Source of the DNA: a phage
Strand: one strand, 5' to 3'
Sequence record: PX880100.1
Length of the DNA: 64,000 nucleotides
Part shown: positions 22,422 through 39,536 of the stretch, in pieces
Layout: each line of letters starts with the position of its first letter
Numbering within the stretch: the first letter of the stretch is position 1
Translations under genes and position numbers: made by a program
The notes under the pieces: generated by a model
What the model saw: the letters and a program-made list of their open reading frames with translations, nothing else
Database searches by the model: none
What the model was told of the DNA's origin: nothing

Positions 22422-22459
22422 TATATAATGTAATTATAAAACTAACTAGGAGATTAAAC

Positions 22460-22978
22460 ATGGGTGTTGATGAATTAACACAGCATCTTCTATCTAGAGG
22501 ATTTGATGCAGATAAATATCATTGCTGGTTAAGTCCGGAAGGATGGCTAACAGTCCCGTTGTATGATTTCTCTGGGATGTTGAGGGGCTATCAAACTTAT
22601 AATCCTTCTGCTCCAAAAGGTCATGGTAAGTATCCCTTTGAAGCTAAATATTTTACCTATTCTACTACCCAGTGTGTATGGGGATTAGAAACTCTCAATG
22701 GAGATGAAAAAGTAGTATTGATCGCTGAATCTGTATTTAAGGCAGTTGCGTTACATAACGCTGGTTATCCAGCCCTAGCAATGTTGGGTTCTTCTCCAGG
22801 AAAAGCGTTATTAAAGCAACTGAAATTATTACCTTTTAAATTGGTAGCTGTCGGGGATAACGATCCTGCGGGTGAAAAATTTGCTAGAAAATTAAACGGC
22901 TTTGTTTCTCCTGTAGATGTGGATGAGATGTCTACCGAAAACTTGAAAAATTTTCTTGCTATGAAGCTAAATTTCTAA
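22460..22978 (+). CDS. hypothetical protein, possible Toprim-like fold
   Basis: IAES and GDNDPAG acidic motifs resemble Toprim. Confidence 0.4.
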   Translation: MGVDELTQHLLSRGFDADKYHCWLSPEGWLTVPLYDFSGMLRGYQTYNPSAPKGHGKYPFEAKYFTYSTTQCVWGLETLNGDEKVVLIAESVFKAVALHNAGYPALAMLGSSPGKALLKQLKLLPFKLVAVGDNDPAGEKFARKLNGFVSPVDVDEMSTENLKNFLAMKLNF

Positions 22979-22999
22979 TATAATATATCTTATAAATTC

Positions 23000-23088
23000 G
23001 GAAGAATAGCATAACGGTATTGCAGCAGATTGCTAATCTGTCGGTTTGAAATATAGCCTTGTGGGTTCGATTCCCACTTCTTCCGCCA
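23000..23088 (+). tRNA. tRNA-Ser (anticodon GCU), long variable arm
   Basis: Perfect acceptor stem; T-arm GTGGG-TTCGATT-CCCAC; encoded CCA. Confidence 0.7.
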
Positions 23089-23094
23089 AATTCT

Positions 23095-23172
23095 GGTTCT
23101 CAAGCTCATATGGTATGAGCACCCAGCTCATAACTGGAAGGTACGTAGGTTCGAATCCTCGGGGAGCCACCA
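23095..23172 (+). tRNA. tRNA with CAU anticodon (Met/fMet/Ile2)
   Basis: Acceptor GGTTCTC/GGGAGCC; anticodon loop CTCATAA; weak T-stem. Confidence 0.5.
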
Positions 23173-23390
23173 ACTTAATTAGGGGATTACAAGTGGAATT
23201 ATACATAGTTTATGTTGTGTTTATTCAAGATAGAGAATACCCTGATGAATATAAAAAAGGATATAGGTTAGCCAGAGCTACCTCTGAAGTCCAAGCTATG
23301 GATAAAGTGGCAGATTATATGATTACGGTAGAAAACGTACACTATATCGACTACCTTGAGGCCTCAAAAGTAATTGACTAAGGAGACTAT

Positions 23391-23576
23391 ATGTCCAAGT
23401 TTCAAGAACTCAAGCAAGAGCTAGAAGAATGTGCCTGCCCTGAGTGTAGGGGAATTGGTGAAAGTTCTGATGCAGAAGCAGGAGATACTTTTTGCAATAT
23501 CTGGGTTTGCCCAAATTGCAATGGTACAGGTATTAATCCTAACTGTGGTATTTCTCTAGATATTGAAAGAGGGTAA
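23391..23576 (+). CDS. small zinc-ribbon protein
   Basis: CPECRG...CPNCNG paired CxxC. Confidence 0.45.
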   Translation: MSKFQELKQELEECACPECRGIGESSDAEAGDTFCNIWVCPNCNGTGINPNCGISLDIERG

Positions 23577-23677
23577 TATCTGTGAAACTAAAAGATTATT
23601 ATATTGGTTGGTTTGTGGGACTAGTAGTAGGATTTTCACTAGGCTATAATATGTATCAACTAATAAACTGATTACAC

Positions 23678-23754
23678 GGGGGTGTAATCGAATTGGCATA
23701 GGTACTGGACTTAAAATTCAGGTTTTGTGGGTTCGAATCCCACCACCCCTACCA
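23678..23754 (+). tRNA. tRNA, anticodon UAA (Leu-type) with short variable arm
   Basis: Acceptor GGGGGTG/CACCCCT; T-arm GTGGG-TTCGAAT-CCCAC; loop CTTAAAA. Confidence 0.5.
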
Positions 23755-23769
23755 AATTAAGGAAATAAG

Positions 23770-23937
23770 ATGTATAGACCTCCACCTCCGCCAACACGTC
23801 GTTCTAGAGAAGTTATCCTCATGGAATTGACTAAAAACTTCAAGGCAACTCTTGAAGATAGAGATTTAGGCACGGATGAAGACATTGATTTTATTTGTAG
23901 ACTATTAAAGATGAAACTGGAGAAACAACATGGCTAA
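23770..23937 (+). CDS. hypothetical small proline-rich protein (55 aa)
   Basis: Hand-translated; AAGGAAA upstream; stop overlaps next ATG. Confidence 0.4.
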   Translation: MYRPPPPPTRRSREVILMELTKNFKATLEDRDLGTDEDIDFICRLLKMKLEKQHG

Positions 23938-24136
23938 TCCTGAAATTACCGCACAACGTTTCATGCTTAAAGGCATGATTGCTGAAGCAGGTATGACTCA
24001 AGAGGTTGCAGACTTTCATAAGCAAATTCTTGATATTATAACTCTAGCTAAAGAGACTGGAGAAAAAGAGCACGCAGCAGCAATTATGGCTATATCTCTT
24101 ATTAGTCTAGACTTGGCTGAAGAATCTGGAGTTTAG
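23930..24136 (+). CDS. hypothetical protein
   Basis: ORF track. Confidence 0.4.
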   Translation: MANPEITAQRFMLKGMIAEAGMTQEVADFHKQILDIITLAKETGEKEHAAAIMAISLISLDLAEESGV

Positions 24137-24226
24137 CTCCTCCAAATAGAATTTTTAAAAATGTACTTGCCTTTTGCTTTAAATTTCTGATATAATAGTT
24201 ATATAAATTGATGAAGGAGTTAACTA

Positions 24227-24502
24227 ATGCAAAATCGTGTTATAGCAACTGGTATTGAAAGTGCAATCTGTAAATCCTGGGAAGGCTGGGAAGGTGAGAT
24301 TGAATGGCTTTATTTCTATGATGTAGAACTTCTGCCGGAAGTTAAAGCTAAATGTGTTGAAGCTGGAATGGCTCCAGATGCAAAAGCTGATATTGATATT
24401 TCAATGTCTGAACTTAAAGGCCGTGTAATTACTGTTAGTGATGAGGGTGAAGAAGTTTTCGAACTTCCATTCTCCTTAACTGTCACTCCTAAGTTCGACT
24501 AA
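24227..24502 (+). CDS. hypothetical protein
   Basis: ORF track; promoter cassette and AAGGAG upstream. Confidence 0.45.
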   Translation: MQNRVIATGIESAICKSWEGWEGEIEWLYFYDVELLPEVKAKCVEAGMAPDAKADIDISMSELKGRVITVSDEGEEVFELPFSLTVTPKFD

Positions 24503-24584
24503 CTAATACAGCACTGAGCAAGTTCTTTAAAATTTGACTTGCTCAGTGCCTTAAAACTTGGTATAATAGTTATCTAATTTGGAA

Positions 24585-24634
24585 ACATATTTAAAAGTGT
24601 TTAAACTAGTATTTGAATACTTTTAAATATGTTG
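24585..24634. repeat. perfect palindrome, 15-bp arms (AACATATTTAAAAGT / ACTTTTAAATATGTT)
   Basis: Read directly; between promoter and tRNA-Tyr. Confidence 0.8.
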
Positions 24635-24735
24635 GATTAGTATCGTAGAGGTAGCGAAGCAGACTGTAAATCTGCCGACTCGGAAGGGTCTCGGGTGGTT
24701 CGACTCCATCATCCATCATCCATCATCCAACACCA
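24631..24735 (+). tRNA. tRNA-Tyr (anticodon GUA) with 14-nt heptamer expansion before the 3' acceptor strand
   Basis: Anticodon stem GCAGA/TCTGC; T-arm GGTGG-TTCGACT-CCATC; ATCCATC x2 inserted before ATCCAAC-A-CCA. Confidence 0.5.
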
Positions 24736-24742
24736 AATTTAA

Positions 24743-24819
24743 GTCCTGTTAGACAAACTGGTAAAGTCACTACCCTTTCAAGGTAGGATTTGCGGGTTCG
24801 ATCCCCGCACAGGACGCCA
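24743..24819 (+). tRNA. tRNA-Glu (anticodon UUC)
   Basis: Perfect acceptor and anticodon stems; T-arm GCGGG-TTCGATC-CCCGC; CCA. Confidence 0.7.
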
Positions 24820-24827
24820 ATTTCTGC

Positions 24828-24904
24828 ATTCCTAGAGTGTTACTGGACAGCATGTCGGTCTCCAAAATCGTACGGTCTAGGTTCGAGTCCTAGTAGGTTT
24901 GCCA
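24828..24904 (+). tRNA. tRNA-Trp (anticodon CCA)
   Basis: T-arm CTAGG-TTCGAGT-CCTAG; loop CTCCAAA; acceptor has two U-U mismatches. Confidence 0.5.
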
Positions 24905-24910
24905 AAATTT

Positions 24911-24985
24911 GCACCTTTAGCTGAGATGGATTAGCGCTTGCCTGAAGAGCTTGAGAGGTTCGTTCGATACGAACAGGGTGCACCA
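24911..24985 (+). tRNA. tRNA-Phe (anticodon GAA)
   Basis: Acceptor GCACCTT/AGGGTGC; T-arm GTTCG-TTCGATA-CGAAC; anticodon stem imperfect. Confidence 0.5.
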
Positions 24986-25002
24986 AATTGAGGGGGCTGC
25001 TG

Positions 25003-25275
25003 ATGCATCCTGAAAACTTCTTTATTTACTGCGCTGATAAGTCGCTGAAACGTAGAATTAACAAAGTCTATCATTATCGTGCTAGTCAACAGCCTTATGT
25101 ATATGCTTTTGACGGTGATCACATTCCATTAGAACAATTATCTTGTGATTACATGATATTGAAGAACTTTGACGAGACAAAGATCTCAAGCGTTCATAAT
25201 CGACAGAATCCCTTAACGTGGAAATATAAGAAGAAAAAGAAAGGCATCAAATTCTTAAAAAATGTAGTTGCTTAG
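25003..25275 (+). CDS. hypothetical protein
   Basis: Track ORF trimmed to first ATG after GAGGGGG, clear of tRNA-Phe. Confidence 0.4.
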   Translation: MHPENFFIYCADKSLKRRINKVYHYRASQQPYVYAFDGDHIPLEQLSCDYMILKNFDETKISSVHNRQNPLTWKYKKKKKGIKFLKNVVA

Positions 25276-25307
25276 TTTCCAAAAGTTCTGTATAATAATT
25301 ACATAAA

Positions 25308-25550
25308 TTGAACTGGAGAAGCAACATGACAGAACAAGAATTGAATGAACGTAAGCTGGTAATGCTCCGCTTACTAAACATTTTCTCTGGTATGGATGGG
25401 GGTATTGACTTTGTTCATCTACGTTCTTTTGTAGAAGAAGCAGAAGGTGAATCTATCACTAAAATCCTTAAACATATGGGTTTACTATTAGATGCTGCTG
25501 GTGTAGCAACGGAATATAACCTCGAAGATCTACCGGAGCGTATTAAATGA
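25308..25550 (+). CDS. hypothetical protein
   Basis: ORF track; promoter cassette and GGAGAAG upstream. Confidence 0.45.
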   Translation: MNWRSNMTEQELNERKLVMLRLLNIFSGMDGGIDFVHLRSFVEEAEGESITKILKHMGLLLDAAGVATEYNLEDLPERIK

Positions 25551-25735
25551 AGAAGCCAAAAGCTAAATTAGTTAAGTTCGACTGTTGTGACACAGAAATC
25601 TTATTCACTAAGTTTGGTGAATTTAAGATGTGTGAATGTGGAACATGTGGTTATGATCATGGTGATGGATATTATTGCAGGACTCTTGGACCAGCAAATC
25701 TAATCCACTTTTCATGGCCGGAAGATAAAGAATAA
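25547..25735 (+). CDS. small Cys-rich protein
   Basis: CC..., CECGTCGYDHGDGYYC; overlapping start. Confidence 0.4.
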   Translation: MKKPKAKLVKFDCCDTEILFTKFGEFKMCECGTCGYDHGDGYYCRTLGPANLIHFSWPEDKE

Positions 25736-25737
25736 TT

Positions 25738-25812
25738 GCATCCTTGTCCGAGTGGCTTAGGTGACGGTCTGCAAAATCGTCTAGGTTGGTTCAATTCCAG
25801 CAGGGTGCTCCA
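25738..25812 (+). tRNA. tRNA-Cys (anticodon GCA)
   Basis: Acceptor GCATCCT/AGGGTGC; loop CTGCAAA; T-arm GTTGG-TTCAATT-CCAGC; weak D-stem. Confidence 0.55.
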
Positions 25813-25818
25813 AATTCA

Positions 25819-25901
25819 GGGTCGTTAGCCAAGCGGTTTGGCGGTGGACTGTTAATCCATGTCGAAAGACAACGTAGGTTCGAATCCTACACGGCCCGCC
25901 A
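25819..25901 (+). tRNA. tRNA, anticodon GUU (Asn-type) with 13-nt variable arm
   Basis: Good D-stem and anticodon stem; T-arm GTAGG-TTCGAAT-CCTAC; CCA. Confidence 0.55.
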
Positions 25902-26003
25902 AATTCTGTGTAGAGTTAAGTAAACCGGTAGCCAACCAGCTATCATTGCTGACATCGAATTCAGCCACAGATACCATTTTCATTAATAACTGAGGAAACA
26001 AGC

Positions 26004-26189
26004 ATGTCCAAGAATGTAATTGCGCAGCTAGAAGTTCATCGTGATAGCACTATCAACAATATTGAAGTTGAGAAGAAATACATCGAAGAACTTAAACATG
26101 ATATACTAGTAAGTCTCAACCGTCTTAATGTACGAAAAGAGTTTCTTAAAGAACTTAATGCAGCTATTGAAAAACTCAAAGCTGAGTAA
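26004..26189 (+). CDS. hypothetical protein
   Basis: ORF track; GAGGAAA upstream. Confidence 0.4.
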   Translation: MSKNVIAQLEVHRDSTINNIEVEKKYIEELKHDILVSLNRLNVRKEFLKELNAAIEKLKAE

Positions 26190-26198
26190 ATGAATTAT

Positions 26199-26275
26199 GC
26201 GACCGGGGCTGGCTTGGTAATGGTACTCCCCTGTCACGGGAGGGAATGTGGGTTCAAATCCCATCGGTCGCGCCA
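26199..26275 (+). tRNA. tRNA-Asp (anticodon GUC)
   Basis: Perfect acceptor and anticodon stems; T-loop TTCAAAT; CCA. Confidence 0.7.
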
Positions 26276-26292
26276 AATAAGGTAGGTTAGCT

Positions 26293-26451
26293 ATGGAACG
26301 TAGAGAGTTTACTCCAGAAGAGATAGAGCAGATAAAAGAATCTGCTACGAAAAATGCTAGAATATCTCTGTCACTAGAAGGTATCATTATTAGTGATGTA
26401 AACTTTGAAAAAATCAAAGCCATAGCTGATGAACTGGAAAAAGTAATTTAA
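26293..26451 (+). CDS. hypothetical small protein (52 aa)
   Basis: Hand-translated between tRNA-Asp and tRNA-Lys. Confidence 0.35.
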   Translation: MERREFTPEEIEQIKESATKNARISLSLEGIIISDVNFEKIKAIADELEKVI

Positions 26452-26452
26452 T

Positions 26453-26528
26453 ACATCCATAGCTCAATGGTTAGAGCTACCGCCTCTTAAGCGGAGGGTT
26501 CTAGGTTCAAGTCCTAGTGGGTGTACCA
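26453..26528 (+). tRNA. tRNA-Lys (anticodon CUU)
   Basis: Canonical D-arm TAGCTCAATGGTTAGAGC; T-arm CTAGG-TTCAAGT-CCTAG; CCA. Confidence 0.7.
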
Positions 26529-26554
26529 AACTAAACTAGCACGAGAAATATACT

Positions 26555-26902
26555 ATGCGTAATGCTAAAGAAGAGTTGTTACTTGCCTTAAAAAATACTA
26601 ATTCTGAAGTTAAGTGTATTAAAATAGAATTCGGGTATTATGGGGACAAAAAAGTTTGGGTATTACCTCTGGGGTATACAGAAGAAGATATTGGGGATTT
26701 TCTTAATAACCTAGACTTTGAGTATGATTCTGGTTATGGTGGACAACTACTTTATGGTAATGTATGGTTTGCCGATGGAACCTGGCTAGAACGTGGGGAA
26801 TATGATGGAGCTGAGTGGTGGGAATACAAGGCTACTCCAGCAATTCCAGAGGAATGCCGAACAATTAATGGTGAAGTAGATAATACTTTAAGGTTAAACT
26901 AA
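26555..26902 (+). CDS. hypothetical protein
   Basis: ORF track. Confidence 0.45.
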   Translation: MRNAKEELLLALKNTNSEVKCIKIEFGYYGDKKVWVLPLGYTEEDIGDFLNNLDFEYDSGYGGQLLYGNVWFADGTWLERGEYDGAEWWEYKATPAIPEECRTINGEVDNTLRLN

Positions 26903-27295
26903 TAAAATTTCAGTGCAGAACACGGAGCTAGCAATTCGGAAGTGCTGACTCATGATAAGCTGCCTATGTACTTGCAAAGCGGTCGTGTCCAAGACTCGGA
27001 CTCTTGCACTGAAAACAATCAAACATTCTAGCGTGGTTGATGGGGAAACCAGCTTGGCTAGGGCAGAAGCTCGTTCGATTCGAGTGAAAGAATGGTTCTC
27101 GTAAGTCCGCACAAGTGATAATAGGTTCGAGTCCTGTCTAGAATGACACTATAAAGTTTACTTATTATGTAGGTTCCGATAGATCGGCGGGTCTATTCTG
27201 GCATTTAAGAGAGGTCTCGCAAACTTCTTTGTCAGCCGTGGGGTTGGTAGCCTCCAGGTGGCCTACACAATAAGTAAATTTATTAAAAATTCATT

Positions 27296-27324
27296 TGCTA
27301 TTTCTCTTAATTATCTGTATAATA
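27296..27324 (+). promoter_or_regulatory. N25-like early promoter driving tRNA-Pro/tRNA-CAU
   Basis: TTGCTA-17 bp-TATAAT; followed by SD plus ATG with only 3 codons, then tRNAs. Confidence 0.6.
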
Positions 27325-27518
27325 TATTTTATAAAGTGAAGAGAAGGAAAGCAAAATGAAACACAAGATAGCTCAAGTTTTTATGGCATTATGGTGTATG
27401 CCAATAGCTATAACAGCATTTAATCTAGATACTTTTACTATAGAAGAAAAATGTATCGGATTAGTTAGTGGCTTTAGTATGCTTGGCTTATCTTTGTTGT
27501 GGTTGAAGAAATAATATT

Positions 27519-27596
27519 CTCCGTGTAGCTCAGTTTGGCCAGAGCGTTTCGTTTGGGGCGATAGGGTCGGGGGTTCAAATCCTCCCACGGAGACCA
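27519..27596 (+). tRNA. tRNA-Pro (anticodon UGG)
   Basis: Acceptor CTCCGTG/CACGGAG; D-arm GCTC...GAGC; T-loop TTCAAAT; CCA. Confidence 0.6.
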
Positions 27597-27602
27597 AACA
27601 AT

Positions 27603-27680
27603 TGCGGGTTAGATCTCTGGTAGAGATCGCTAGTCTCATAAGCTAGAAAGAGGTAGGTTCGATTCCTGCACCCGCTTCCA
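27603..27680 (+). tRNA. tRNA with CAU anticodon (Met/fMet/Ile2)
   Basis: D-stem GATC/GATC; anticodon stem CTAGT/GCTAG; T-loop TTCGATT; CCA. Confidence 0.6.
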
Positions 27681-27700
27681 TTTTAATAGAGGATTTCGAA

Positions 27701-27868
27701 ATGAAAGTATTTCGATTAGTAGTAAGTGACAAACGCTTAGGTAAGAATACATCAAAATCCTTACTTGCTCATTATGGTAGAAATTGGGATGAAGTAATGG
27801 CAGAGTTTAGTACTAATCACTCTTACTTGAAAGTTCACTCTATTAAAGAAGTATACAATGGTTACTAA
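27701..27868 (+). CDS. hypothetical small protein (55 aa)
   Basis: Hand-translated; SD-like upstream; ends 2 nt before tRNA-Lys. Confidence 0.4.
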   Translation: MKVFRLVVSDKRLGKNTSKSLLAHYGRNWDEVMAEFSTNHSYLKVHSIKEVYNGY

Positions 27869-27869
27869 T

Positions 27870-27948
27870 AGATCGCTAGCTCAATAGGTTTAGTAGCATC
27901 CGACTTTTAATCGGAAGGTTCTGGGTTCAAGTCCCAGGCGATCTACCA
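27870..27948 (+). tRNA. tRNA-Lys (anticodon UUU)
   Basis: Perfect acceptor AGATCGC/GCGATCT; anticodon stem TCCGA/TCGGA; T-loop TTCAAGT; CCA. Confidence 0.7.
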
Positions 27949-27952
27949 ATTT

Positions 27953-28026
27953 GCTCGGTTAGTTTAATGGGAGAACCCCGTCTTTACATGGCGGTTGAGA
28001 TAGTTCGATTCTATCACCGGGTACCA
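27953..28026 (+). tRNA. tRNA-Val (anticodon UAC)
   Basis: T-arm GATAG-TTCGATT-CTATC; anticodon stem CCGTC/GGCGG; CCA. Confidence 0.65.
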
Positions 28027-28045
28027 ATTAACTCAAAATAAGGAA

Positions 28046-28405
28046 TTGCAAATGCAATTATCAAGCAAGATTCAAGGTTATTTCGGTCATGTGACAATGG
28101 AGTTCGCTATCTCTAAAGGTTGGGACTTCGAACAAGATTTAGCTGAGTTCTACAAAGATATTGATCTGAACGTACCGTACATGGGACTTTCTACTGGTCA
28201 GGAGATCACAGAAGCCGATGTATTCAAGGCAAGTCAAGGTGAGGTAACACCTAGTTTTGCCGAGTTCTGGTTAGGCATTACGTTAAAAGAAGATGCACCA
28301 GATAGTGGTGTACTAATGTCTAGTATGCACTCTGGAAGTTCCGATTACCTTTTCATTAGCGATGTTAAGGAAATACAAGAAGTCTGCAAAAATGTACTTG
28401 CTTGA
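28046..28405 (+). CDS. hypothetical protein
   Basis: ORF track; AAGGAAT upstream. Confidence 0.45.
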   Translation: MQMQLSSKIQGYFGHVTMEFAISKGWDFEQDLAEFYKDIDLNVPYMGLSTGQEITEADVFKASQGEVTPSFAEFWLGITLKEDAPDSGVLMSSMHSGSSDYLFISDVKEIQEVCKNVLA

Positions 28406-28664
28406 TGCTTAATTTCTTGTTATAATATTTATATAAATTGATGAGGAGAAATCCTCATCATAGTTCACTAAGGTATTAGCTCGACCTAGGACTGGCTGCC
28501 AAAAAGCACGATCCCTACGATTCGGGAGAAGTTCTAGATTGGTCCACTAGATTCAGCGGCAACTGAATAGTGTATTGGGTTTGCGAGATGACGTAGTTCC
28601 TTCCGCTCTAAGCGAAGGTGCTGTAGTTACGCCGAGCTAATAGCCTTAGTAAACTAAAGAATTT

Positions 28665-28743
28665 GGGGAATGGGTCTGCATGGAGTGGACACCTCGCTTG
28701 CACCGAGGACATCAGAACGGTTCGATTCCGTTATTCTCCACCA
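28665..28743 (+). tRNA. tRNA-Ala (anticodon UGC)
   Basis: Anticodon stem CCTCG/CGAGG; T-arm AACGG-TTCGATT-CCGTT; CCA. Confidence 0.65.
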
Positions 28744-28748
28744 AATAC

Positions 28749-28825
28749 GCGTGATTGATGGAATTGGCATACATACCGTCCTTAGAAGTCGGGTTTTGAG
28801 GGTTCGAATCCCTTGTCACGCACCA
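28749..28825 (+). tRNA. tRNA, anticodon UAG (Leu-type) with short variable arm
   Basis: Perfect acceptor GCGTGAT/GTCACGC; T-loop TTCGAAT; loop CTTAGAA. Confidence 0.5.
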
Positions 28826-28937
28826 AATTTGATGGTCAGAGTAAATTAAACCTACTATCTCGGTTGAGCTGTTTTAATGGGTTCGAATCCCAGCGAGGCG
28901 TAACTGCCTGGTGTGATAGAGGCATCATCTTATTATT

Positions 28938-29028
28938 GGAAGAGCAAATCGAATTGGCGACGAAAACCGCTTGGAAAGTGGCTGACTGGTAAAACGGCTT
29001 GAGAGTTCAAATCTCTCCTCTTCCGCCA
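28938..29028 (+). tRNA. tRNA-Ser (anticodon GGA), class II
   Basis: Perfect acceptor GGAAGAG/CTCTTCC; T-arm GAGAG-TTCAAAT-CTCTC; long variable arm; CCA. Confidence 0.6.
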
Positions 29029-29040
29029 AACAATTTATAT

Positions 29041-29135
29041 GGTAGGTCAATCCAATGGCTGGCGTGGGACTCCGACTTGAAATCGGTTGATCGTAGTGAT
29101 ACGGTGTAAGGGTTCGATCCCCTTACCTACCTCCA
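29041..29135 (+). tRNA. tRNA-Ser (anticodon UGA), class II
   Basis: Perfect acceptor GGTAGGT/ACCTACC; T-arm AAGGG-TTCGATC-CCCTT; 20-nt variable arm; CCA. Confidence 0.6.
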
Positions 29136-29501
29136 AATCTTGAAGTATGCCGGAATCGGTAGACGGGGCTGCCTAAAAGGTTTATAGGGAACATCCACTC
29201 CCTGCAACATACCCCATAAAGCGGCTGAGATAAATGGTCTATCTCGTGAAGGTTCAAGTCCTTCTGCTTCTTGATACATCAATGGCTCAAAGTGTAACGG
29301 CGCTATTTGATGCGCTTAGTAAGACTTCCCCGACATGCGTTCGGGAGTAAGCTGCTAAGGCTAGAGTAGAAGAGTTTCTGAGAGCCGCCACAATTGAAGA
29401 TTCGTACTCGTCTTGAGCTGCGTGCAATAGGAGATAACTTGATTAGTATTCTAGAACATGCTAATTGAGGAAGGTTTCGCTAACCCTGCGAGTTTTCAAT
29501 T

Positions 29502-29578
29502 GTGGCTATATCATAATTGGTTAATGATCCTGATTGTGAATCAGGCCTATGTGGATTCGAATTCCACTAGCCACCCCA
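29502..29578 (+). tRNA. tRNA-His (anticodon GUG)
   Basis: Perfect acceptor and anticodon stems; T-arm GTGGA-TTCGAAT-TCCAC; CCA. Confidence 0.7.
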
Positions 29579-29603
29579 AATTAACTTAAATAGGAAATAA
29601 AAT

Positions 29604-29798
29604 ATGGCTGATTTCTGCAAACAATGCTCCATTGATATGTGGGGCAGAGATACTGGTGATCTTTCTGGTTTGATTACAGAAGCTGAAGTTAAAGAAGGCT
29701 ACGGTGCTGTTGTGATTTGCGAGGGATGCGGAGTTATTCGAGTAGATCATGAAGGCAAACGTTTGGAAGAATCTGAGCCAACAACAATTTTTCCGTAG
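29604..29798 (+). CDS. small zinc-ribbon protein
   Basis: CKQC...CEGC; AGGAAAT upstream. Confidence 0.45.
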   Translation: MADFCKQCSIDMWGRDTGDLSGLITEAEVKEGYGAVVICEGCGVIRVDHEGKRLEESEPTTIFP

Positions 29799-29810
29799 AA
29801 TAAAAATTAT

Positions 29811-29886
29811 TGGGATGTAGATCAATTGGCAGATCGTCGGCCTCTGACTCCGAAGGCTCCACGTTCGATCCGTGGCATCCCAGCCA
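29811..29886 (+). tRNA. tRNA-Gln (anticodon CUG)
   Basis: Perfect acceptor TGGGATG/CATCCCA; D-stem GATC/GATC; T-arm CCACG-TTCGATC-CGTGG; CCA. Confidence 0.65.
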
Positions 29887-29892
29887 AATAAT

Positions 29893-29968
29893 TGGAGAGT
29901 AGTGTAACGGTTAGCACAACGGCCTTTGACTCCGTTAATGGTAGGTTCGATTCCTCCTTCTCCAGCCA
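29893..29968 (+). tRNA. tRNA-Gln (anticodon UUG)
   Basis: Paralogous anticodon arm to previous tRNA; T-loop TTCGATT; CCA. Confidence 0.6.
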
Positions 29969-29976
29969 AATAATAA

Positions 29977-30052
29977 GCGGTTAAGCACACGGGTTGTGTC
30001 GCAGGCCTTCCAAGCCTCGCTGAGTAGGGTTCGATTCCCTCTAGCCGCTCCA
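29977..30052 (+). tRNA. tRNA-Gly (anticodon UCC)
   Basis: Acceptor GCGGTTA/TAGCCGC; loop CTTCCAA; T-loop TTCGATT; CCA. Confidence 0.55.
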
Positions 30053-30068
30053 ACTTTAAGGGGACATT

Positions 30069-30290
30069 ATGCACGTTTTTGAGTTTCGTAATAAAAGTAC
30101 CGATAAACGAGTTATTGTTATCGGGGAAACATACCGAGCATACGAACAAACTGACGGCTCTGTTATCCTGAATGACGAAAAAGGAGGTTTTAGCTTTTAT
30201 CCCAAAGAAACTTACGAAGAATTTCGTACAAAGTTTCTTCTACCAGACTGGCTAGAAGTAGCGCAGCAACGAGAACCCGAAGATGGCTGA
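30069..30290 (+). CDS. hypothetical protein
   Basis: ORF track; SD-like AAGGGGA upstream. Confidence 0.45.
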   Translation: MHVFEFRNKSTDKRVIVIGETYRAYEQTDGSVILNDEKGGFSFYPKETYEEFRTKFLLPDWLEVAQQREPEDG

Positions 30291-30447
30291 TAACCTAAAA
30301 GTCAAGATCGATAAACAAAAGAAACGTGTCGAAGTAGAGATTGGTGAAGAACGTGTAGCCTTCACCTTTGAATTTCTACAACAAATGGCAATGACAGTTA
30401 TGACTGATAAGTCTCCTGTTATTGAAAAAGAAATCCCGTTGAAATAA
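30283..30447 (+). CDS. hypothetical small protein (54 aa)
   Basis: Hand-translated; ATG overlaps upstream stop (ATGGCTGA). Confidence 0.35.
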   Translation: MADNLKVKIDKQKKRVEVEIGEERVAFTFEFLQQMAMTVMTDKSPVIEKEIPLK

Positions 30448-30456
30448 CGGGCTATC

Positions 30457-30531
30457 GCTCCTAAAGCATTGTTGGCGATGCAGTTGCCTTGTAAGCATCT
30501 GAACCGGGTTCGATTCCTGGTGGGAGCACCA
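30457..30531 (+). tRNA. tRNA-Thr (anticodon UGU)
   Basis: D-stem GCAT/ATGC; T-arm CCGGG-TTCGATT-CCTGG; CCA. Confidence 0.6.
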
Positions 30532-30546
30532 AATTTAAAAATTCAT

Positions 30547-30575
30547 TTGCTTTCTCTCTTATTTCTTGTTATAAT
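30547..30575 (+). promoter_or_regulatory. N25-like early promoter
   Basis: TTGCTT-17 bp-TATAAT, then ATAAATTAATGAGAGGG. Confidence 0.65.
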
Positions 30576-30605
30576 ATTTATATAAATTAATGAGAGGGAA
30601 GCCAA

Positions 30606-30899
30606 ATGAAACGTTATCTTTCTGTTGTGTTCCAAACTGGTGGTCAGCGCTATACTTACGAATTTCCTGGCTCTTGGAAAGTCAAAGAAGGTGATCAAGT
30701 AGTTGTATTAACACCGCGTGACGGGTATAAGGTAGTAACGGTTAAGCAAGTATTTTCAAAAGACTATGAACCGTCTAAGTCTATTAACTATAAGATGATT
30801 CATGGTGTAGTTCGTCAAGTACCACGAGCGGAAGTCGAAATCAAAGTAGATAAAGATGATAAACTTAAATATACCTCTTGCATAGACGAGTTGCTATAA
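30606..30899 (+). CDS. hypothetical protein
   Basis: ORF track; promoter and SD upstream. Confidence 0.5.
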   Translation: MKRYLSVVFQTGGQRYTYEFPGSWKVKEGDQVVVLTPRDGYKVVTVKQVFSKDYEPSKSINYKMIHGVVRQVPRAEVEIKVDKDDKLKYTSCIDELL

Positions 30900-31105
30900 T
30901 GAGGATTACTTTTACAGAAAAGATTATGAGTAATGGTGTTATGATCATTACCGCATGGGACAGTAATCAGTGGTGTAGTGTTTCAGGTATTAAGCCTGAA
31001 GAACAAACACTAGAAAATATCTCAAAGATTAAGCGAAGAATGGCAGAACGTGCACGACTTCCAGGTGCACCTAGAAATGGCAAACGTTCTGCTGTGAAAT
31101 GTTAA
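30878..31105 (+). CDS. hypothetical protein
   Basis: ORF track; start uncertain. Confidence 0.35.
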   Translation: MHRRVAIMRITFTEKIMSNGVMIITAWDSNQWCSVSGIKPEEQTLENISKIKRRMAERARLPGAPRNGKRSAVKC

Positions 31106-31106
31106 T

Positions 31107-31183
31107 GCTTCGGTAGCTTAGCGATCTAAAGCACTCGGCTGATAACCGAGAGATCGGGGGTTTAAATCCCTCCCGGAGTACCA
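31107..31183 (+). tRNA. tRNA-Ile (anticodon GAU)
   Basis: Perfect anticodon stem CTCGG/CCGAG; T-loop TTTAAAT; CCA. Confidence 0.6.
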
Positions 31184-31279
31184 AATTTAGGAATTAAGAC
31201 TATGCGTCCAGGAAAGTTTAGAAAAGCTAATTGGTCTAAAGAGTATAAAGAATACTTACTTAGTCTAGTAAAACATAAC

Positions 31280-31355
31280 AGTTAGTTGGCAGAGTGGTTA
31301 TGCACCTCCTTCATACGGAGCGACTACAGTGGTTCAAATCCACTACTAACTACCA
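31280..31355 (+). tRNA. tRNA with CAU anticodon (Met/fMet/Ile2)
   Basis: Perfect acceptor AGTTAGT/ACTAACT; T-arm AGTGG-TTCAAAT-CCACT; CCA. Confidence 0.6.
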
Positions 31356-33901: not shown

Positions 33902-34175
33902 CACAGTGCAGATTCCAGCAACTAAGGATGTTTTAACATTCCTACGGAGTGAAAACGCTCAGTTTTGGCATGATCATGTTGTAAAGAACGGTAGTACTCC
34001 AGATGTAGTTGCCTTTGCTAAAAAACGTATCGAAGAATATAAAGATCCAGAGATTAAAGATGGGATGATTACTATGCAATTGTGGGTAGCCATGAATACG
34101 TTTGGACCTACTATGAGTCTAGGAGTTACTCCACTGTTTACTAATATTCTAATTAATGAAAAGGATCTGAAATGA
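33879..34175 (+). CDS. hypothetical protein
   Basis: ORF track. Confidence 0.4.
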   Translation: MKRLNINSTVQIPATKDVLTFLRSENAQFWHDHVVKNGSTPDVVAFAKKRIEEYKDPEIKDGMITMQLWVAMNTFGPTMSLGVTPLFTNILINEKDLK

Positions 34176-34456
34176 TTATCTCTCCATTTGCTCTTTGGTT
34201 CGTCATTGGATCTATAGTAGCTATTTACAGCTTGGTTGATGATCTGTATATTTCTAAGAATAAAGATGTAATATTATACGTTATACATAAAACTCGACCG
34301 TTAGATCTGCCTCCTCTTGATGATAAAACATTACTCAGATGTGCTAGATCTATGATATTTATTGTGGATATTCTTCTAGGCCCAACATCTGTATTTTTCT
34401 TTTATAGAAAGACTCGTAATATGAAAAAATTTAAAGCTGAAATGCAGAATACCTAA
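34172..34456 (+). CDS. hypothetical membrane protein
   Basis: Two hydrophobic segments. Confidence 0.4.
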   Translation: MIISPFALWFVIGSIVAIYSLVDDLYISKNKDVILYVIHKTRPLDLPPLDDKTLLRCARSMIFIVDILLGPTSVFFFYRKTRNMKKFKAEMQNT

Positions 34457-34566
34457 AGAACTCGCGTAGGACCGAGTTGCGTCACCTGCAGCTGTTACGG
34501 ATAAGGGAGTCGTGCCCCTTAGTGCGGTAAGTGGTGAGGTGGCTGCTAGCCATAACTGGAGATAAT

Positions 34567-34911
34567 ATGACTACATTACTAATTCTTGTTACAACTTGGT
34601 TTTTAATCGGTGCTGGATATGCGATAGCTATTATTAGACATCTGGACGAATATTCTGCTGAATGGTTTGTTAAGTATCTACGTATTGATGATCAAGAACA
34701 GAAGTTTAAAGATGAAAAGCAGAAAAAAGCAGTAAATAATATGACAGCCAAAGAATGCTTGTTCTACATGCGTATTGTAGGGTTCTTTGGACTATTAGTT
34801 GCTGGCCCAATTGGTTCTACCATTGCCCCGTATAAAGAAACAGTTGCTGACATCAAATTGTGGAGAAATGCAGGGGTACTACGCAAAGCTAGAGAAACTA
34901 ATATTACATAA
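34567..34911 (+). CDS. hypothetical membrane protein
   Basis: Track ORF trimmed to ATG after GGAG; two predicted TM helices. Confidence 0.4.
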   Translation: MTTLLILVTTWFLIGAGYAIAIIRHLDEYSAEWFVKYLRIDDQEQKFKDEKQKKAVNNMTAKECLFYMRIVGFFGLLVAGPIGSTIAPYKETVADIKLWRNAGVLRKARETNIT

Positions 34912-35066: not shown

Positions 35067-35765
35067 ATGAGGATTATTTCTAAGTTCGCCGATGTGTATG
35101 ATTTGCAGAACAGTTTGTTAGACCCAGATCGTGTTTGGGAACGTAAAACTGAAGAGTTGCTGGTTAAAGTAACCGATGATGCAGAAAAGAACATTGTGCA
35201 CACTCGCCAGGTATTTCGTGATGGTTCGCTATCTTTCCGTGGTGATTTCGAATATTTTGTAAACCCACTATTTGTTGCAGGTGAAGTTTACTGGTTACAC
35301 GAGCTATACTGCTGGCATCCAGCATTTAGCTTCAAAACGTTTAATCTCGACACTATGTTCGATAAAATGGAAGAGATGGGATTGCATGCTCGTTCTTACT
35401 TAATGGATAAGAGTCGCGGAGATGTTCGTGAAACAATGCGTGATTTGCTCGCTGAAGCAAAACCTAAAGCAGAACGTATCTTATCCGAACTGCGTGTACC
35501 GATTGCATATGTGAAAGGTATTAAAAAGAACGATAACGATGATGTTCGTAACTTCGTGATTCAGACTAACATTCGTTTCCATCAGTCAGGTATTCCGTGG
35601 CAGGAAATTGAAAGTAACTTATACCGTTTACACCAAGTTCTCGAACAGTATATCTTTGGAGTACTAGGAACTGGTGAGCCTGATATGATTAAAGTATCAG
35701 ATAAAGACAGGTTAGCAGCGCATGGATTTGATACAAAAACTTCTTTCAGGAATATGGCACGGTAA
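35067..35765 (+). CDS. hypothetical protein
   Basis: ORF track; promoter cassette and AGAGGA upstream. Confidence 0.5.
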   Translation: MRIISKFADVYDLQNSLLDPDRVWERKTEELLVKVTDDAEKNIVHTRQVFRDGSLSFRGDFEYFVNPLFVAGEVYWLHELYCWHPAFSFKTFNLDTMFDKMEEMGLHARSYLMDKSRGDVRETMRDLLAEAKPKAERILSELRVPIAYVKGIKKNDNDDVRNFVIQTNIRFHQSGIPWQEIESNLYRLHQVLEQYIFGVLGTGEPDMIKVSDKDRLAAHGFDTKTSFRNMAR

Positions 35766-36171
35766 GTGGTATATCCTGGGAGCAGGTCTAGCGATAGGCA
35801 TCGGGTTTGGTACTTATCACTTAGTAGATAAAGTGGAGACTCTAGCAGGTGATCTTGCAGTAGCTACTAAAAAGATCTCTTCTCTAGAGACTTCGCTTAA
35901 TAAGGTGAAAGCTGAAAGCGAACTTCGTGAGACTAGAATGAATCAGTATTTCACGATGAATAACATTTCGCAAACAGATCTAGACAAAAAGATTAAGCAG
36001 TTAGATAAAGCTCTTAGTCGACAAGATATTATAGCTGCAAAGCCTGGATTGGTAACATTAATTGCTAAAAAGCAGAGTAAAGAGTTCGAGGAAAGATTAG
36101 CGTGTTTAACTGGAAACTTGGAATACTGCTCGCAGCCGCAATCACAATCACAGGCTGTGCAGAAGAAATAA
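35722..36171 (+). CDS. membrane-anchored coiled-coil protein (possible i-spanin)
   Basis: N-terminal TM helix then coiled-coil; overlaps downstream lipoprotein gene. Confidence 0.4.
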   Translation: MDLIQKLLSGIWHGKWYILGAGLAIGIGFGTYHLVDKVETLAGDLAVATKKISSLETSLNKVKAESELRETRMNQYFTMNNISQTDLDKKIKQLDKALSRQDIIAAKPGLVTLIAKKQSKEFEERLACLTGNLEYCSQPQSQSQAVQKK

Positions 36172-36455
36172 AACCAGAGCCATCTCATGAGTTAAAGCAA
36201 GCTCATGTAGACTGGCCTAAAGGACTTCAACCGTGTAGCTTTGACTTTAAGTTTGAAAAGAAATTAGCTACAAATGGAGAAGATGGCGTAGTAGTTGTTG
36301 TACCATATAAAGATTGGAATATGTTGGCAAAATGCCGTGAGGCAGAATATTCATATATTTCACGACTGACTGGTATGGTTTGCTTCTATCGCCAAGATTT
36401 ACAAGAAAAACGTTGCTTAGTTTACTATCCACCAATTAACAATAGGAAAGATTAA
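36102..36455 (+). CDS. lipoprotein (possible o-spanin)
   Basis: Signal peptide with lipobox ITGC; overlaps upstream gene by about 70 nt. Confidence 0.4.
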   Translation: MFNWKLGILLAAAITITGCAEEIKPEPSHELKQAHVDWPKGLQPCSFDFKFEKKLATNGEDGVVVVVPYKDWNMLAKCREAEYSYISRLTGMVCFYRQDLQEKRCLVYYPPINNRKD

Positions 36456-37207
36456 TGTCAGTATTAGTCGGTTTACATGGTGAAGCTGGTTCGGGAAAAG
36501 ATACCGTTGCAAAATTAATTATCGATTGGTGTAATGACACGTATCCAACGTGTTTATCCCGTCGTTATAGTTTTGCTAAGCCCGTTTATGAACTTGCATC
36601 CGTAATCCTCGGTGTAACTCCAGAGTTTCTAGGAGAGCGCAGGGGAAAAGAGATTGACCAATGGTTTACGGTCACACAATCTCAGTTGGAGCGAGCCAGG
36701 GATGTATGGTTTAAGTACGGTATCGATAAGTTCGAAGATTTCTCGTACGTTTGGCCTATTTTTGAGGAAAAATATCTTAATCCTCAACAACTTATATCAG
36801 AGAATAAAGAAGACGGTCTTTATAGTTTATTTATTTCTCCGAGAAAAATGTTACAGCTCGTAGGAACAGAGCTAGGAAGGCAGCTGGTGCATGAACGCAT
36901 TTGGCTCATAATTCTGGAGCAATCCATCTCTAAAGACGACCCAGATGTCGCCGTAATAACAGATGTTAGATTCCCCAATGAAGGAGAGCTACTCAGAGAA
37001 ACAAACCATTTAGATATGGATTCTTTGATAGTAAATGTAGTACCAGCTGAGCAGAAGTTCACTATTAAATCAGATCATCCATCTGAAAGTGGTATTCCTG
37101 CAAAATATATTACTCACGAATTAGTTAATAAATTCGATGGTATCAATAACCTTAAACTAGAAGTTTATAACTTCTGTGACTTAGAGCTAGAACCACTAGT
37201 TGGATAA
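36455..37207 (+). CDS. deoxynucleoside monophosphate kinase
   Basis: N-terminal P-loop GEAGSGKDT, as in phage dNMP kinases. Confidence 0.7.
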   Translation: MSVLVGLHGEAGSGKDTVAKLIIDWCNDTYPTCLSRRYSFAKPVYELASVILGVTPEFLGERRGKEIDQWFTVTQSQLERARDVWFKYGIDKFEDFSYVWPIFEEKYLNPQQLISENKEDGLYSLFISPRKMLQLVGTELGRQLVHERIWLIILEQSISKDDPDVAVITDVRFPNEGELLRETNHLDMDSLIVNVVPAEQKFTIKSDHPSESGIPAKYITHELVNKFDGINNLKLEVYNFCDLELEPLVG

Positions 37208-37219: not shown

Positions 37220-37819
37220 ATGACTAATAAAAAAGAAGAAAAGACTAACCTGTTTCACTCCATTCGCCAATCTAATGAGTATACCTTTTTCTTTGATGAA
37301 GAATTAGGCCCGCCGGATGAATACCGTGATTTATCAATGGTACTTATGCAGGCAAATGAGGACGACGAAATTAATCTGATGATTAATGGCCCAGGTGGTT
37401 ATGTTGATACTGCTGCACAGTTATCTAACTTAATTGCTAATTGCCGTGGAACAGTTATAGGGCATCTGGTTGGTCCTAGTGCTTCTGCTTACTGTACAAT
37501 TTTCCTATCCTGTCATGGATGGGTAGTACATCCACATGCTACGCTAATGGGACACACGTTCTCTGGCGGATTCTGTGAGAAGGGTCAAGAAATCAAGAAA
37601 GCCTATGAATCTTACAACAAGTTCGTAGAAGATATGATGCTAGATGTCTACTATCCGTTCTTCTCAATAGACGAAATCGACGAGATGGTAAAAGACAACA
37701 AAAATATCTATCTAGATAGCAAAGAAATCCATAAGCGTATTGAAATCTTGGCGAAATATCGATCTGAGCAGTATAATAAAGCCCAGTTACCTCAATCCGA
37801 GGAGTATAACGAAGAGTAA
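37220..37819 (+). CDS. ClpP-like serine peptidase (S14 family)
   Basis: INGPGG, GPSASA (Ser) and H motifs resembling the ClpP triad region. Confidence 0.5.
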   Translation: MTNKKEEKTNLFHSIRQSNEYTFFFDEELGPPDEYRDLSMVLMQANEDDEINLMINGPGGYVDTAAQLSNLIANCRGTVIGHLVGPSASAYCTIFLSCHGWVVHPHATLMGHTFSGGFCEKGQEIKKAYESYNKFVEDMMLDVYYPFFSIDEIDEMVKDNKNIYLDSKEIHKRIEILAKYRSEQYNKAQLPQSEEYNEE

Positions 37820-37826: not shown

Positions 37827-37859
37827 TAAGCCAGGGTTTAACGACCCTGGCTTTTCTTT
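37827..37859 (+). terminator. Rho-independent terminator
   Basis: AGCCAGGG...CCCTGGCT hairpin then TTTT. Confidence 0.7.
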
Positions 37860-37975
37860 TATCTAAAATTCTTCTTGACAACGACAAAATTTTGTGCTCC
37901 AAAGAAAATCTTTAAAAACACATTGTAATTTTCCTCCAAAATTAGTATAATGGTACTGGTTAGAGGAGGTTACAA

Positions 37976-38632
37976 TTGGAAAAGTTCTTACAATTATTAA
38001 CGGTACTGCTCCAAGAAGCGAAAGATCCAGCATCGCTTCTTAAACGTCTGCTAACTATCTTAGTTGCTGTCATTATTTTCTTATTTGTTAGTAATACTAG
38101 CGAGGTGATGTCATTCTTAAAGACTTTCTCCACGTCTGCGGTTCTACAGGATGTTCAAACTCAAAGGATAGATAACTTTCCTAATGTAGCTAGAGAAAAG
38201 AGCATGGTACTCTTTTCTCAAACGGGTGCGGATGCTGTTTTTGTAGTCAAGTATAAACCCGATGCCATTAATGATTATTCTAACATTATTGCATGGGAAA
38301 GCAATGCGCAATTAGATAGGGCTGACTTGGCCGATAAAGCAGTAAATAAAACGTCTGAGCTATACAGACGTCACTTAGAGGGCTTTAACTACGCATCGGA
38401 TTTAAGTGTAAGAGTAAATAAATATACGGGGTTAAATATACCTGCGTTTAAGAATGTTACTTTTAATTACATATACACTTGTCCATATTTCAATCTAAAC
38501 AATATCTATGCTGGATATATTGGTATTGCTTGGAAAGATAATCCTGTAGATGCAGCCGATTCTGAGAAATTCAAGGAATATTTAACAAAGCTCTGTTCCC
38601 CACAACAGAGATCTTTAGGTAGATCAATATGA
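37976..38632 (+). CDS. hol: putative holin (TTG start)
   Basis: Hydrophobic N-terminal segment; immediately upstream of endolysin with overlapping stop/start; GAGGAGG SD. Confidence 0.45.
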   Translation: MEKFLQLLTVLLQEAKDPASLLKRLLTILVAVIIFLFVSNTSEVMSFLKTFSTSAVLQDVQTQRIDNFPNVAREKSMVLFSQTGADAVFVVKYKPDAINDYSNIIAWESNAQLDRADLADKAVNKTSELYRRHLEGFNYASDLSVRVNKYTGLNIPAFKNVTFNYIYTCPYFNLNNIYAGYIGIAWKDNPVDAADSEKFKEYLTKLCSPQQRSLGRSI

Positions 38633-39042
38633 GTTTTAAATTTGGTAAAAACAGCGAAAAACAATTAGCTACCGTTAAGCCAGAGCTACAAAAAGTAGCT
38701 CGTAGAGCTTTAGAATTATCTCCATATGATTTCACGATCGTACAGGGTATTCGTACAGTAGCACAAAGTGCCCAGAATATTGCTAATGGTACCTCATTTT
38801 TAAAAGATCCTAGTAAAAGCAAGCATATTACTGGGGATGCGCTTGATTTTGCTCCATATATTAATGGCAAAATTGATTGGAATGACTTAGAAGCATTTTG
38901 GGCGGTTAAAAAGGCTTTTGAACAAGCGGGTAAAGAACTAGGTATTAAACTTCGTTTTGGTGCTGATTGGAATAACTCCGGAGACTATCACGATGAAATA
39001 AAACGTGGTACCTATGACGGCGGTCATGTCGAACTAGTTTAA
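38629..39042 (+). CDS. lys: endolysin, L-alanyl-D-glutamate peptidase (M15-like)
   Basis: 137 aa; H..D and DGGH metal-ligand pattern; lysis-cassette context. Confidence 0.7.
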   Translation: MSFKFGKNSEKQLATVKPELQKVARRALELSPYDFTIVQGIRTVAQSAQNIANGTSFLKDPSKSKHITGDALDFAPYINGKIDWNDLEAFWAVKKAFEQAGKELGIKLRFGADWNNSGDYHDEIKRGTYDGGHVELV

Positions 39043-39119: not shown

Positions 39120-39536
39120 ATGTTTGCAGAACTATTCACTATGATGCTGCTAGGTATCTGGAAAATAAGTCTAGTAGTATTCGTTTTAATGATAGTCTTC
39201 ACTATCATTGCATTAACTACCCGAAATAGCTTATTAATAAAGGTTATTCACGGACTAGAGTATATAATTATGGGTTCATTCGGCGTTTGTAAATGCAATT
39301 GCCATAGAGATACGAAATATTGTTGGTTATGGATGGAACTAGAGAATCCTATATCCATAGCTTTGGCTGTTTCATTCGGTATGATTCTTATGGCCCTTAC
39401 TCTAGCATTAATACCTTTGATGTTAGCTGGGGGAGTTACAGCGTATTTCACCCTTTTCTCCCCGATACTTATGTACTCAATTTACCCAGTAACTATGTAT
39501 CTAGTTAGGAAAAAATTTATACATGCAGTAGATTAA
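39120..39536 (+). CDS. hypothetical polytopic membrane protein
   Basis: Three or four hydrophobic helices. Confidence 0.4.
   Translation: MFAELFTMMLLGIWKISLVVFVLMIVFTIIALTTRNSLLIKVIHGLEYIIMGSFGVCKCNCHRDTKYCWLWMELENPISIALAVSFGMILMALTLALIPLMLAGGVTAYFTLFSPILMYSIYPVTMYLVRKKFIHAVD

Follow-up and report, generated by a model that had tools for sequence, protein, structure and literature searches.

The locus considered here raises the question of whether two overlapping phage genes, the first encoding a membrane protein with a coiled coil and the second a lipoprotein, together constitute an i-/o-spanin pair, even though the holin and endolysin genes lie some distance downstream. An earlier sequence-only reading of the same DNA had proposed such a pair from gene layout and protein architecture, while noting the separation from the holin and endolysin. 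The window, by which we mean the whole 64,000-nt stretch of DNA that was analysed (sequence record PX880100.1), is from a T5-like phage (Tequintavirus); between positions 35000 and 39200 it shares 98.7% identity with Escherichia phage IME178, and about 450 GenBank records match this region, nearly all of them from Tequintavirus and Epseptimavirus phages of Escherichia and Salmonella. The features at the centre of the question are:

35722..36171, + strand: predicted i-spanin gene, 149 aa, ATG start (ORF; homologue of T5.045 and T4 PseT.3)
36102..36455, + strand: predicted o-spanin gene, 117-aa precursor, GTG start (ORF; homologue of T5.044 and T4 PseT.2)
36102..36171, + strand: 70-nt dual-coding overlap, two different frames (ORF listing and raw sequence)

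Both ORFs were recovered at these positions in the ORF listing and in the raw sequence, with the second starting inside the first and in another frame, as had been read. In one frame, the overlap encodes the C-terminal tail of the i-spanin (aa 127-149, including C128 and C136); in the other frame, the same nucleotides encode the signal peptide, lipobox, and first mature residues of the o-spanin. The pair thereby has the gene layout of a two-component spanin, and its architecture class is "overlapped" (70-nt overlap, different frame).

Family searches point in the same direction for each protein. The 149-aa product matches phrog_739 ("Rz-like spanin"; E 4.2e-37) and the 117-aa product matches phrog_812 (likewise "Rz-like spanin"; E 5.1e-30), these being the very families matched by T4 PseT.3 and PseT.2 (E 1.3e-37 and 5e-42, respectively). 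By BLASTP, the i-spanin is 27% identical to PseT.3 (E 2e-5) and the o-spanin is 28% identical to PseT.2 (E 7e-7). Far closer are the T5 proteins, with 127 of 139 residues identical to T5.045 (91%; 139 of 149 residues covered) and 112 of 117 identical to T5.044 (96%; full length). A protein belongs to the T5 i- or o-spanin family of SpaninDB (Kongari 2018) if it shares 40% identity or more with a family member across 40% or more of the length, and both proteins lie above these thresholds; the SpaninDB-style classification that had been suggested as a check thus places the pair in the two T5 families. The T5 RefSeq record labels T5.045 and T5.044 Rz-like spanins and remarks on their resemblance to the T4 PseT proteins; phage DaisyDussoix is one of those whose records name ORFs identical to the present pair i-spanin and o-spanin. 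Pfam and NCBIfam scans returned neither protein above any model cut-off. A sub-threshold match to FtsL (20.9 bits against a cut-off of 50) was set aside, as we take it to reflect a shared layout of membrane helix followed by coiled coil and nothing further. A search with the o-spanin sequence against solved structures found no relative at E up to 1.

Our reading, which we hold with high confidence, is that 35722..36171 and 36102..36455 encode the two-component i-/o-spanin of a T5-like phage; the earlier proposal is thus upheld by the PHROG families, the identity to T5.045 and T5.044, the families and key residues shared with T4 PseT.3 and PseT.2, and the DaisyDussoix annotation. The assignment draws directly on gene structure, targeting signals, homology to T5.045/T5.044 and PseT.3/PseT.2, purifying selection on both frames, and conserved synteny. 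The pair is nonetheless already known, as a published and catalogued T5-family spanin (T5 RefSeq record, SpaninDB), with nothing new in its identity.

Within the i-spanin, three segments merit description:

35767..35826, + strand: predicted N-terminal membrane helix, aa 16-35, WYILGAGLAIGIGFGTYHLV, glycine-rich (best Kyte-Doolittle window)
35827..36018, + strand: predicted helical, coiled-coil-prone periplasmic segment, aa 36-99 (heptad enrichment; low-confidence AlphaFold)
36040..36054, + strand: KPGLV motif, aa 107-111 (alignment of eight i-spanins; BLASTP against PseT.3)

The N-terminal transmembrane helix named in the sequence-only reading corresponds to the hydrophobic segment at aa 16-35. 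Its Kyte-Doolittle mean over 19 residues is 1.42, which falls below the classical cut-off of 1.6, and the call is therefore moderate rather than strong. The segment is conserved in T5, and an equivalent one is present in all i-spanin homologues once their annotated starts are corrected. It is preceded by K6 and K15 and followed by D36, E39, and D44. Taken together, the sequence fits a predicted N-in/C-out topology, with a single N-terminal membrane helix and most of the protein on the periplasmic side.

The coiled-coil periplasmic domain, also claimed previously, finds support in heptad periodicity and in a helical, albeit low-confidence, model. Across aa 36-79, the a/d heptad positions are occupied by V-L-L-A-I-L-L-V, a score reached by 0.1% of shuffles (P=0.001), and aa 84-100 are similarly enriched (P=0.011 versus shuffles). 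Single-sequence AlphaFold, at low confidence (pLDDT 63.8), gave a helix at 16-79, a short break, and a second helix at 84-99. The i-spanin accordingly has a helical, coiled-coil-prone periplasmic domain. Further along, the KPGLV motif keeps K107, P108, and L110 unchanged from the T5-like phages to T4 PseT.3 in the eight-sequence alignment, and the periplasmic cysteines C128 and C136 form a C-x7-C tail encoded within the overlap.

For the o-spanin, the relevant elements are:

36088..36092, + strand: Shine-Dalgarno-like GAGGA (read from the sequence; 9 nt between the motif and the o-spanin GTG)
36147..36158, + strand: predicted lipobox ITG/C, aa 16-19, cleavage at the slash (regex, PROSITE-type pattern)
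36381..36416, + strand: C-terminal cysteine pair C94...C105, in MVCFYRQDLQEKRC (aligned with the PseT.2 cysteines)

The N-terminus reads MFNWKLGILLAAAITITG up to the cleavage point and CAEE beyond it, with one n-region Lys, a hydrophobic core, and a lipobox, matching the PROSITE-type lipoprotein pattern. The mature protein is predicted to start at Cys19 (TGT, 36156-36158), which would carry the lipid, and the residue at +2 is Ala and not Asp. The o-spanin would thus be exported by way of a lipobox-bearing SPII signal peptide, and the absence of Asp at +2 fits outer-membrane sorting. For the homologue in Klebsiella phage Sugarland, the annotators' LipoP call was SPII with cleavage at 18-19, the same position as here, and G18 and C19 are invariant among eight aligned o-spanins. 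Lack of a functional lipobox had been named as an observation that would refute a spanin; what we find instead is a canonical ITGC by pattern and a LipoP-supported homologue.

Beyond Cys19, the o-spanin contains C45, C78, C94, and C105. The last two align with the cysteine pair of PseT.2, without which the T4 spanin does not function, and C94, Y96, E102, and C105 are invariant across the eight aligned o-spanins. In the same alignment, C45 and C78 co-occur or are both absent, and since they come and go together they may form an intramolecular disulfide. Each of the two proteins is predicted to offer at least one periplasmic cysteine for an intermolecular disulfide. The mature o-spanin comprises 98 aa with 7% proline and is predicted to be structured; its single-sequence AlphaFold model (pLDDT 49.4) is too poor for use.

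One might ask whether 36102..36455 is a chance open frame, with only the first gene being real. Spurious ORFs of up to 99 aa occur near the pair in this A+T-rich genome, meaning that ORF length alone is no evidence here, and the o-spanin CDS is omitted or shortened in many GenBank records. Among the about 450 related records, many have the genes as "hypothetical", the overlapping o-spanin missing, or a truncated stub in its place: (i) in IME178, the best match, both spanin genes are labelled "hypothetical protein"; (ii) in HMD-7 and BUCT632, the o-spanin is annotated as a 132-nt stub; (iii) in EscoHU1, its CDS is absent from the annotation; (iv) in PR1 and phiR201, the annotated i-spanin starts downstream of the membrane helix; and (v) in Proteus M4H10_20, the annotated o-spanin start is 8 codons late. 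Variation among eight relatives, at 86-98% nucleotide identity, speaks otherwise:

i-spanin, single-coding part: 101 of 335 sites variable, 72 of these at third codon positions
o-spanin, single-coding part: 76 of 284 sites variable, 51 of these at third codon positions
i-/o-spanin overlap (70 nt, dual-coding): 6 of 70 sites variable
overlap with the upstream gene (44 nt, dual-coding): 3 of 44 sites variable

Variability is lower in the i-/o-spanin overlap (6/70) than in single-coding sequence (177/619; Fisher p=1.6e-4). All eight relatives keep both ORFs open, the lipobox ITGC, and every cysteine, and their o-spanin start codon is either GTG or ATG. Both reading frames are under purifying selection. 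Beyond these relatives, homologues in five other Demerecviridae genera range from 36-43% identity down to about 24%, with the two genes still adjacent; the i-/o-spanin overlap there measures 88 nt in Sugarland, 34 nt in DU_PP_V, 49 nt in PR1, and 34 nt in Proteus M4H10_20. The open frames, lipobox, cysteines, third-position bias, and low variability of the overlap raise the pair above what chance would yield. Against a fortuitous second frame, in particular, stand the third-position bias of 51/76 in the o-spanin's own frame, a start that varies solely between GTG and ATG, a lipobox and cysteines conserved down to 24% identity, and a PHROG match at E 5e-30; we thus reject a chance second ORF as refuted by the conservation data, and give it next to no credence. 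The practical value of the present analysis accordingly lies in annotation, as the pair is inconsistently annotated and a reader given only the sequence outdid many of the records; for discovery it carries little weight, the finding being correct but ordinary.

Downstream of the o-spanin gene, the neighbourhood is arranged as follows:

36455..37207, + strand: dNMP kinase gene (phrog_139, E 5.9e-52; Pfam DNMK)
37220..37819, + strand: Clp-like protease gene (phrog_1827, E 6.5e-90; Pfam CLP_protease, E 4e-8)
37828..37853, + strand: terminator-like hairpin, 11-bp stem then T-rich tail (pattern match)
37923..37951, + strand: promoter-like site TTGTAA-17-TATAAT, ahead of the holin gene (pattern match)
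37976..38632, + strand: holin gene, 218 aa, T4 gpt type (Pfam Phage_holin_T, E 2.8e-112; phrog_860)
38629..39042, + strand: endolysin gene, 137 aa, M15-type peptidase (phrog_465, E 1.3e-54)

The o-spanin stop codon and the ATG of the dNMP kinase gene overlap by a single base. Against Pfam Peptidase_M15_4, the endolysin scored 24.4 bits, just below the 25-bit cut-off, and it is annotated as lys/endolysin in T5. The hairpin at 37828..37853 is strong and is predicted to terminate the unit to which the spanin genes belong. The records of T5, Sugarland, and PR1 have an annotated terminator at the corresponding position, and that of T5 also has a promoter there; promoter-like matches are, in total, no more numerous in this region than after shuffling.

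The dNMP kinase and Clp-like genes that had been read between the spanins and the holin/endolysin are thus confirmed, and the gap from o-spanin stop to holin start amounts to 1,520 nt. Where the earlier account erred was in treating this distance as unusual. The order i-spanin, o-spanin, dnk, Clp protease, holin, endolysin is kept in six Demerecviridae genera (Tequintavirus, Epseptimavirus, Sugarlandvirus, Priunavirus, Novosibvirus, and Hongcheonvirus), such that separation from the holin and endolysin is the norm in this family. The T4 spanin genes are likewise remote, being described in Kongari et al. 2018 (PMC6139136) as not beside the T4 holin and endolysin genes. With the arrangement conserved and T4 alike, we reject the distance from the holin as an argument against a spanin role.

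The position of the pair does, however, invite another explanation, namely that the lipoprotein modifies the envelope or excludes other phages in the manner of T5 Llp, with the upstream membrane protein unrelated to it and the overlap a mere matter of gene packing. A non-lysis lipoprotein does exist in T5-like phages, since Llp blocks the FhuA receptor (PMC4342426), and the pair shares its unit with genes of nucleotide metabolism instead of adjoining the holin; moreover, our literature searches turned up no direct experiments on the T5 pair, nor on any T5-family spanin. Llp-like exclusion is nevertheless contradicted by the homology of the o-spanin to PseT.2, with which it shares a PHROG family and both essential cysteines; Kongari et al. 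2018 (PMC6139136) report Cys-to-Ser data by which both PseT.2 cysteines are essential, and complementation of the lambda RzamRz1am lysis defect by pseT.3/pseT.2. Unrelated neighbours would also sit poorly with two genes that are adjacent in six of six genera and linked even where a homing endonuclease has been inserted between them. For Shivani and phiR201, that paper describes a GIY-YIG homing endonuclease gene between the i- and o-spanin genes (PMC6139136); in phiR201 we observed the insertion (about 700 bp). On the strength of the PseT.2 homology we reject an Llp-like exclusion lipoprotein, which we regard as highly improbable, in favour of the spanin pair.

Judging from its architecture and from about 27% identity to T4 PseT.3/PseT.2, the pair most likely completes lysis by disrupting the outer membrane of the host. 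Extrapolating from work on lambda and T4 with respect to localisation, complex formation, disulfide linkage, membrane fusion, and expression timing, the process might unfold as follows. The i-spanin would sit in the inner membrane as a type II protein, its helical periplasmic domain reaching toward the outer membrane. The o-spanin would be exported, lipidated at Cys19, and Lol-sorted to the inner leaflet of the outer membrane, a destination it should reach because its +2 residue is Ala and not Asp. Binding of the two through their periplasmic C-terminal parts would then yield a complex that spans the periplasm, with homodimers probably locked by disulfides, involving C94/C105 on the o-spanin side, as for T4 PseT.2, and perhaps C128/C136 on the i-spanin side. 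Restrained by the peptidoglycan mesh, such complexes would accumulate harmlessly, as they could given that their genes lie in the upstream transcription unit with the dNMP kinase and the Clp-like protease. When the T-type holin has fired and the wall has been digested by the M15 endolysin, the freed complexes would oligomerise and their coiled coils collapse; this collapse would fuse the inner and outer membranes, removing the last barrier to phage release.

True spanin homologues could still be dispensable or degenerate in this phage, with the outer membrane being broken in some other way. In the laboratory, lambda can do without its spanins when cultures are shaken and no divalent cations are added, which lends this possibility some colour. 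Kongari et al. 2018 (PMC6139136) also include a section on spanin-less phages. A degenerate pair would, however, be hard to reconcile with purifying selection on both frames and with signals and cysteines that are intact in eight close and six distant relatives; we thus consider dispensability very unlikely and retain a functional spanin pair as the preferred reading.

Among known systems, T5 itself is the nearest. Kongari et al. 2018 list ten members each for the T5 i-spanin and o-spanin families, in the overlapped class, and state an overlap of 70 bp for the T5 spanins (PMC6139136); the 70-nt overlap, the lipobox ITGC, and the cysteines of T5 equal those found here. Downstream, T5 again matches, with dnk, the Clp-like protease, terminator plus promoter, holin, and endolysin. 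The differences lie upstream: the i-spanin of T5 departs from that of the window in its first ~10 residues, and T5 carries the HNH homing endonuclease gene hegF just upstream of the i-spanin gene. The window is without hegF, and therefore its homologue of T5.047 runs 44 nt past the start of the i-spanin gene, an arrangement shared, along with the N-terminus LSGIW, by Klebsiella phage Sugarland. Shivani and phiR201 represent the separated architecture within the T5 family; their proteins are homologous, with cysteines as here, and their spanin genes do not overlap because a homing-endonuclease gene of about 700 bp intervenes.

T4 PseT.3/PseT.2 resemble the present pair in combining a type II membrane protein that has a coiled coil with a structured lipoprotein. 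Common to both are the KPGLV motif in the i-spanin and a C...YR..L.E..C end in the o-spanin. In contrast, (i) the T4 spanin genes are classed as separated, whereas here they overlap by 70 nt; (ii) the C-x7-C tail (C128, C136) of Demerecviridae i-spanins is missing from T4; (iii) the o-spanin has two cysteines (C45, C78) more than PseT.2; and (iv) T5-like o-spanins bear a 12-residue C-terminal extension that T4 lacks. The strictly conserved i-spanin/o-spanin/dnk/Clp block, transcribed separately from the holin and endolysin across the six genera, may reflect a functional link and not just inheritance of gene order, e.g., processing or control of the spanins or holin by the protease, or the extra cysteines (i-spanin C-x7-C, o-spanin C45/C78) may define a disulfide scheme unlike those of lambda and T4; we consider such novelty very unlikely. 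Complementation of the T5 pair and mutagenesis of the extra cysteines would make a modest, useful addition to spanin biology.

With lambda, the relationship is one of design. Sequence similarity to Rz/Rz1 was not detectable: at E up to 1, Pfam gave no match to an Rz or Rz1 model, and its only matches to any family were two at chance level. Rz1 lies wholly within Rz and is proline-rich and unstructured with 40 aa in its mature form, whereas the o-spanin here has 98 aa when mature and its gene overlaps only in part; the lambda spanin genes sit in the lysis cassette, whereas this pair is outside it. In lambda, function needs disulfide-linked homodimers (Kongari et al. 2018, PMC6139136). As in Rz/Rz1, an inner-membrane protein of type II, helical in its periplasmic part, is predicted to pair with an outer-membrane lipoprotein whose gene uses a different frame of shared DNA; judged by this analogy, the pair would work like Rz/Rz1 from outside the Rz/Rz1 sequence families.

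The o-spanin encoded in the window carries two additional cysteines, at the following codons:

36234-36236, (+), o-spanin C45
36333-36335, (+), o-spanin C78

In the o-spanin alignment, C45 and C78 co-occur in most Demerecviridae proteins, and both are missing from the o-spanin of Providencia phage PR1 and from T4 PseT.2; this joint presence or absence suggests that the pair may form an additional intramolecular disulfide particular to Demerecviridae o-spanins.

Several public records misannotate these genes. The annotated "o-spanins" of HMD-7 (L002 1825-1956) and BUCT632 (L014 703-834) are 132-nt stubs without a signal peptide, the o-spanin CDS is absent from the EscoHU1 record (L015), and that of Proteus phage M4H10_20 (L006 3525) is given a start 8 codons too late. 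For the i-spanins of PR1 (L005 3208) and Yersinia phage phiR201 (L007 3055), the annotated start lies 3' of the membrane helix, which is restored by an in-frame upstream ATG. In phiR201, the otherwise overlapped pair is separated by an intervening gene, an arrangement already described in Kongari 2018 (PMC6139136):

L007 3413-4111, homing-endonuclease gene between the phiR201 i- and o-spanin genes

The phiR201 i-spanin retains both cysteines; its extreme C-terminus is different.

The ORF listing also places a reading frame across the i/o overlap, most likely spurious given the A+T-rich genome:

35943-36188, (-), antisense ORF of 81 aa

Farther upstream lies a tRNA cluster, in keeping with the tRNA region expected in T5-like phages:

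21307-31355, (+), 24 clustered tRNA genes

Small predicted multi-pass membrane proteins are encoded on the flanks of the spanin and holin units, with transmembrane domains as given in the T5 record:

34172-34456, T5.049 homologue (2 domains)
34531-34911, T5.048 homologue (2 domains)
39120-39536, T5.039 homologue (4 domains)

The i-spanin start itself is overlapped by a conserved upstream gene:

35067-35765, T5.047 homologue (phrog_4243)

This overlap spans 44 nt (35722-35765), of which 3 sites vary in the comparison with 8 close relatives. In T5, the HNH homing endonuclease hegF is inserted at the T5.047/i-spanin junction, whereas the window is hegF-free, and the i-spanin N-termini of the two phages differ. 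Because the LSGIW N-terminus of the window's i-spanin resembles that of Klebsiella phage Sugarland, the hegF-free arrangement looks, from these sequences, to be ancestral.
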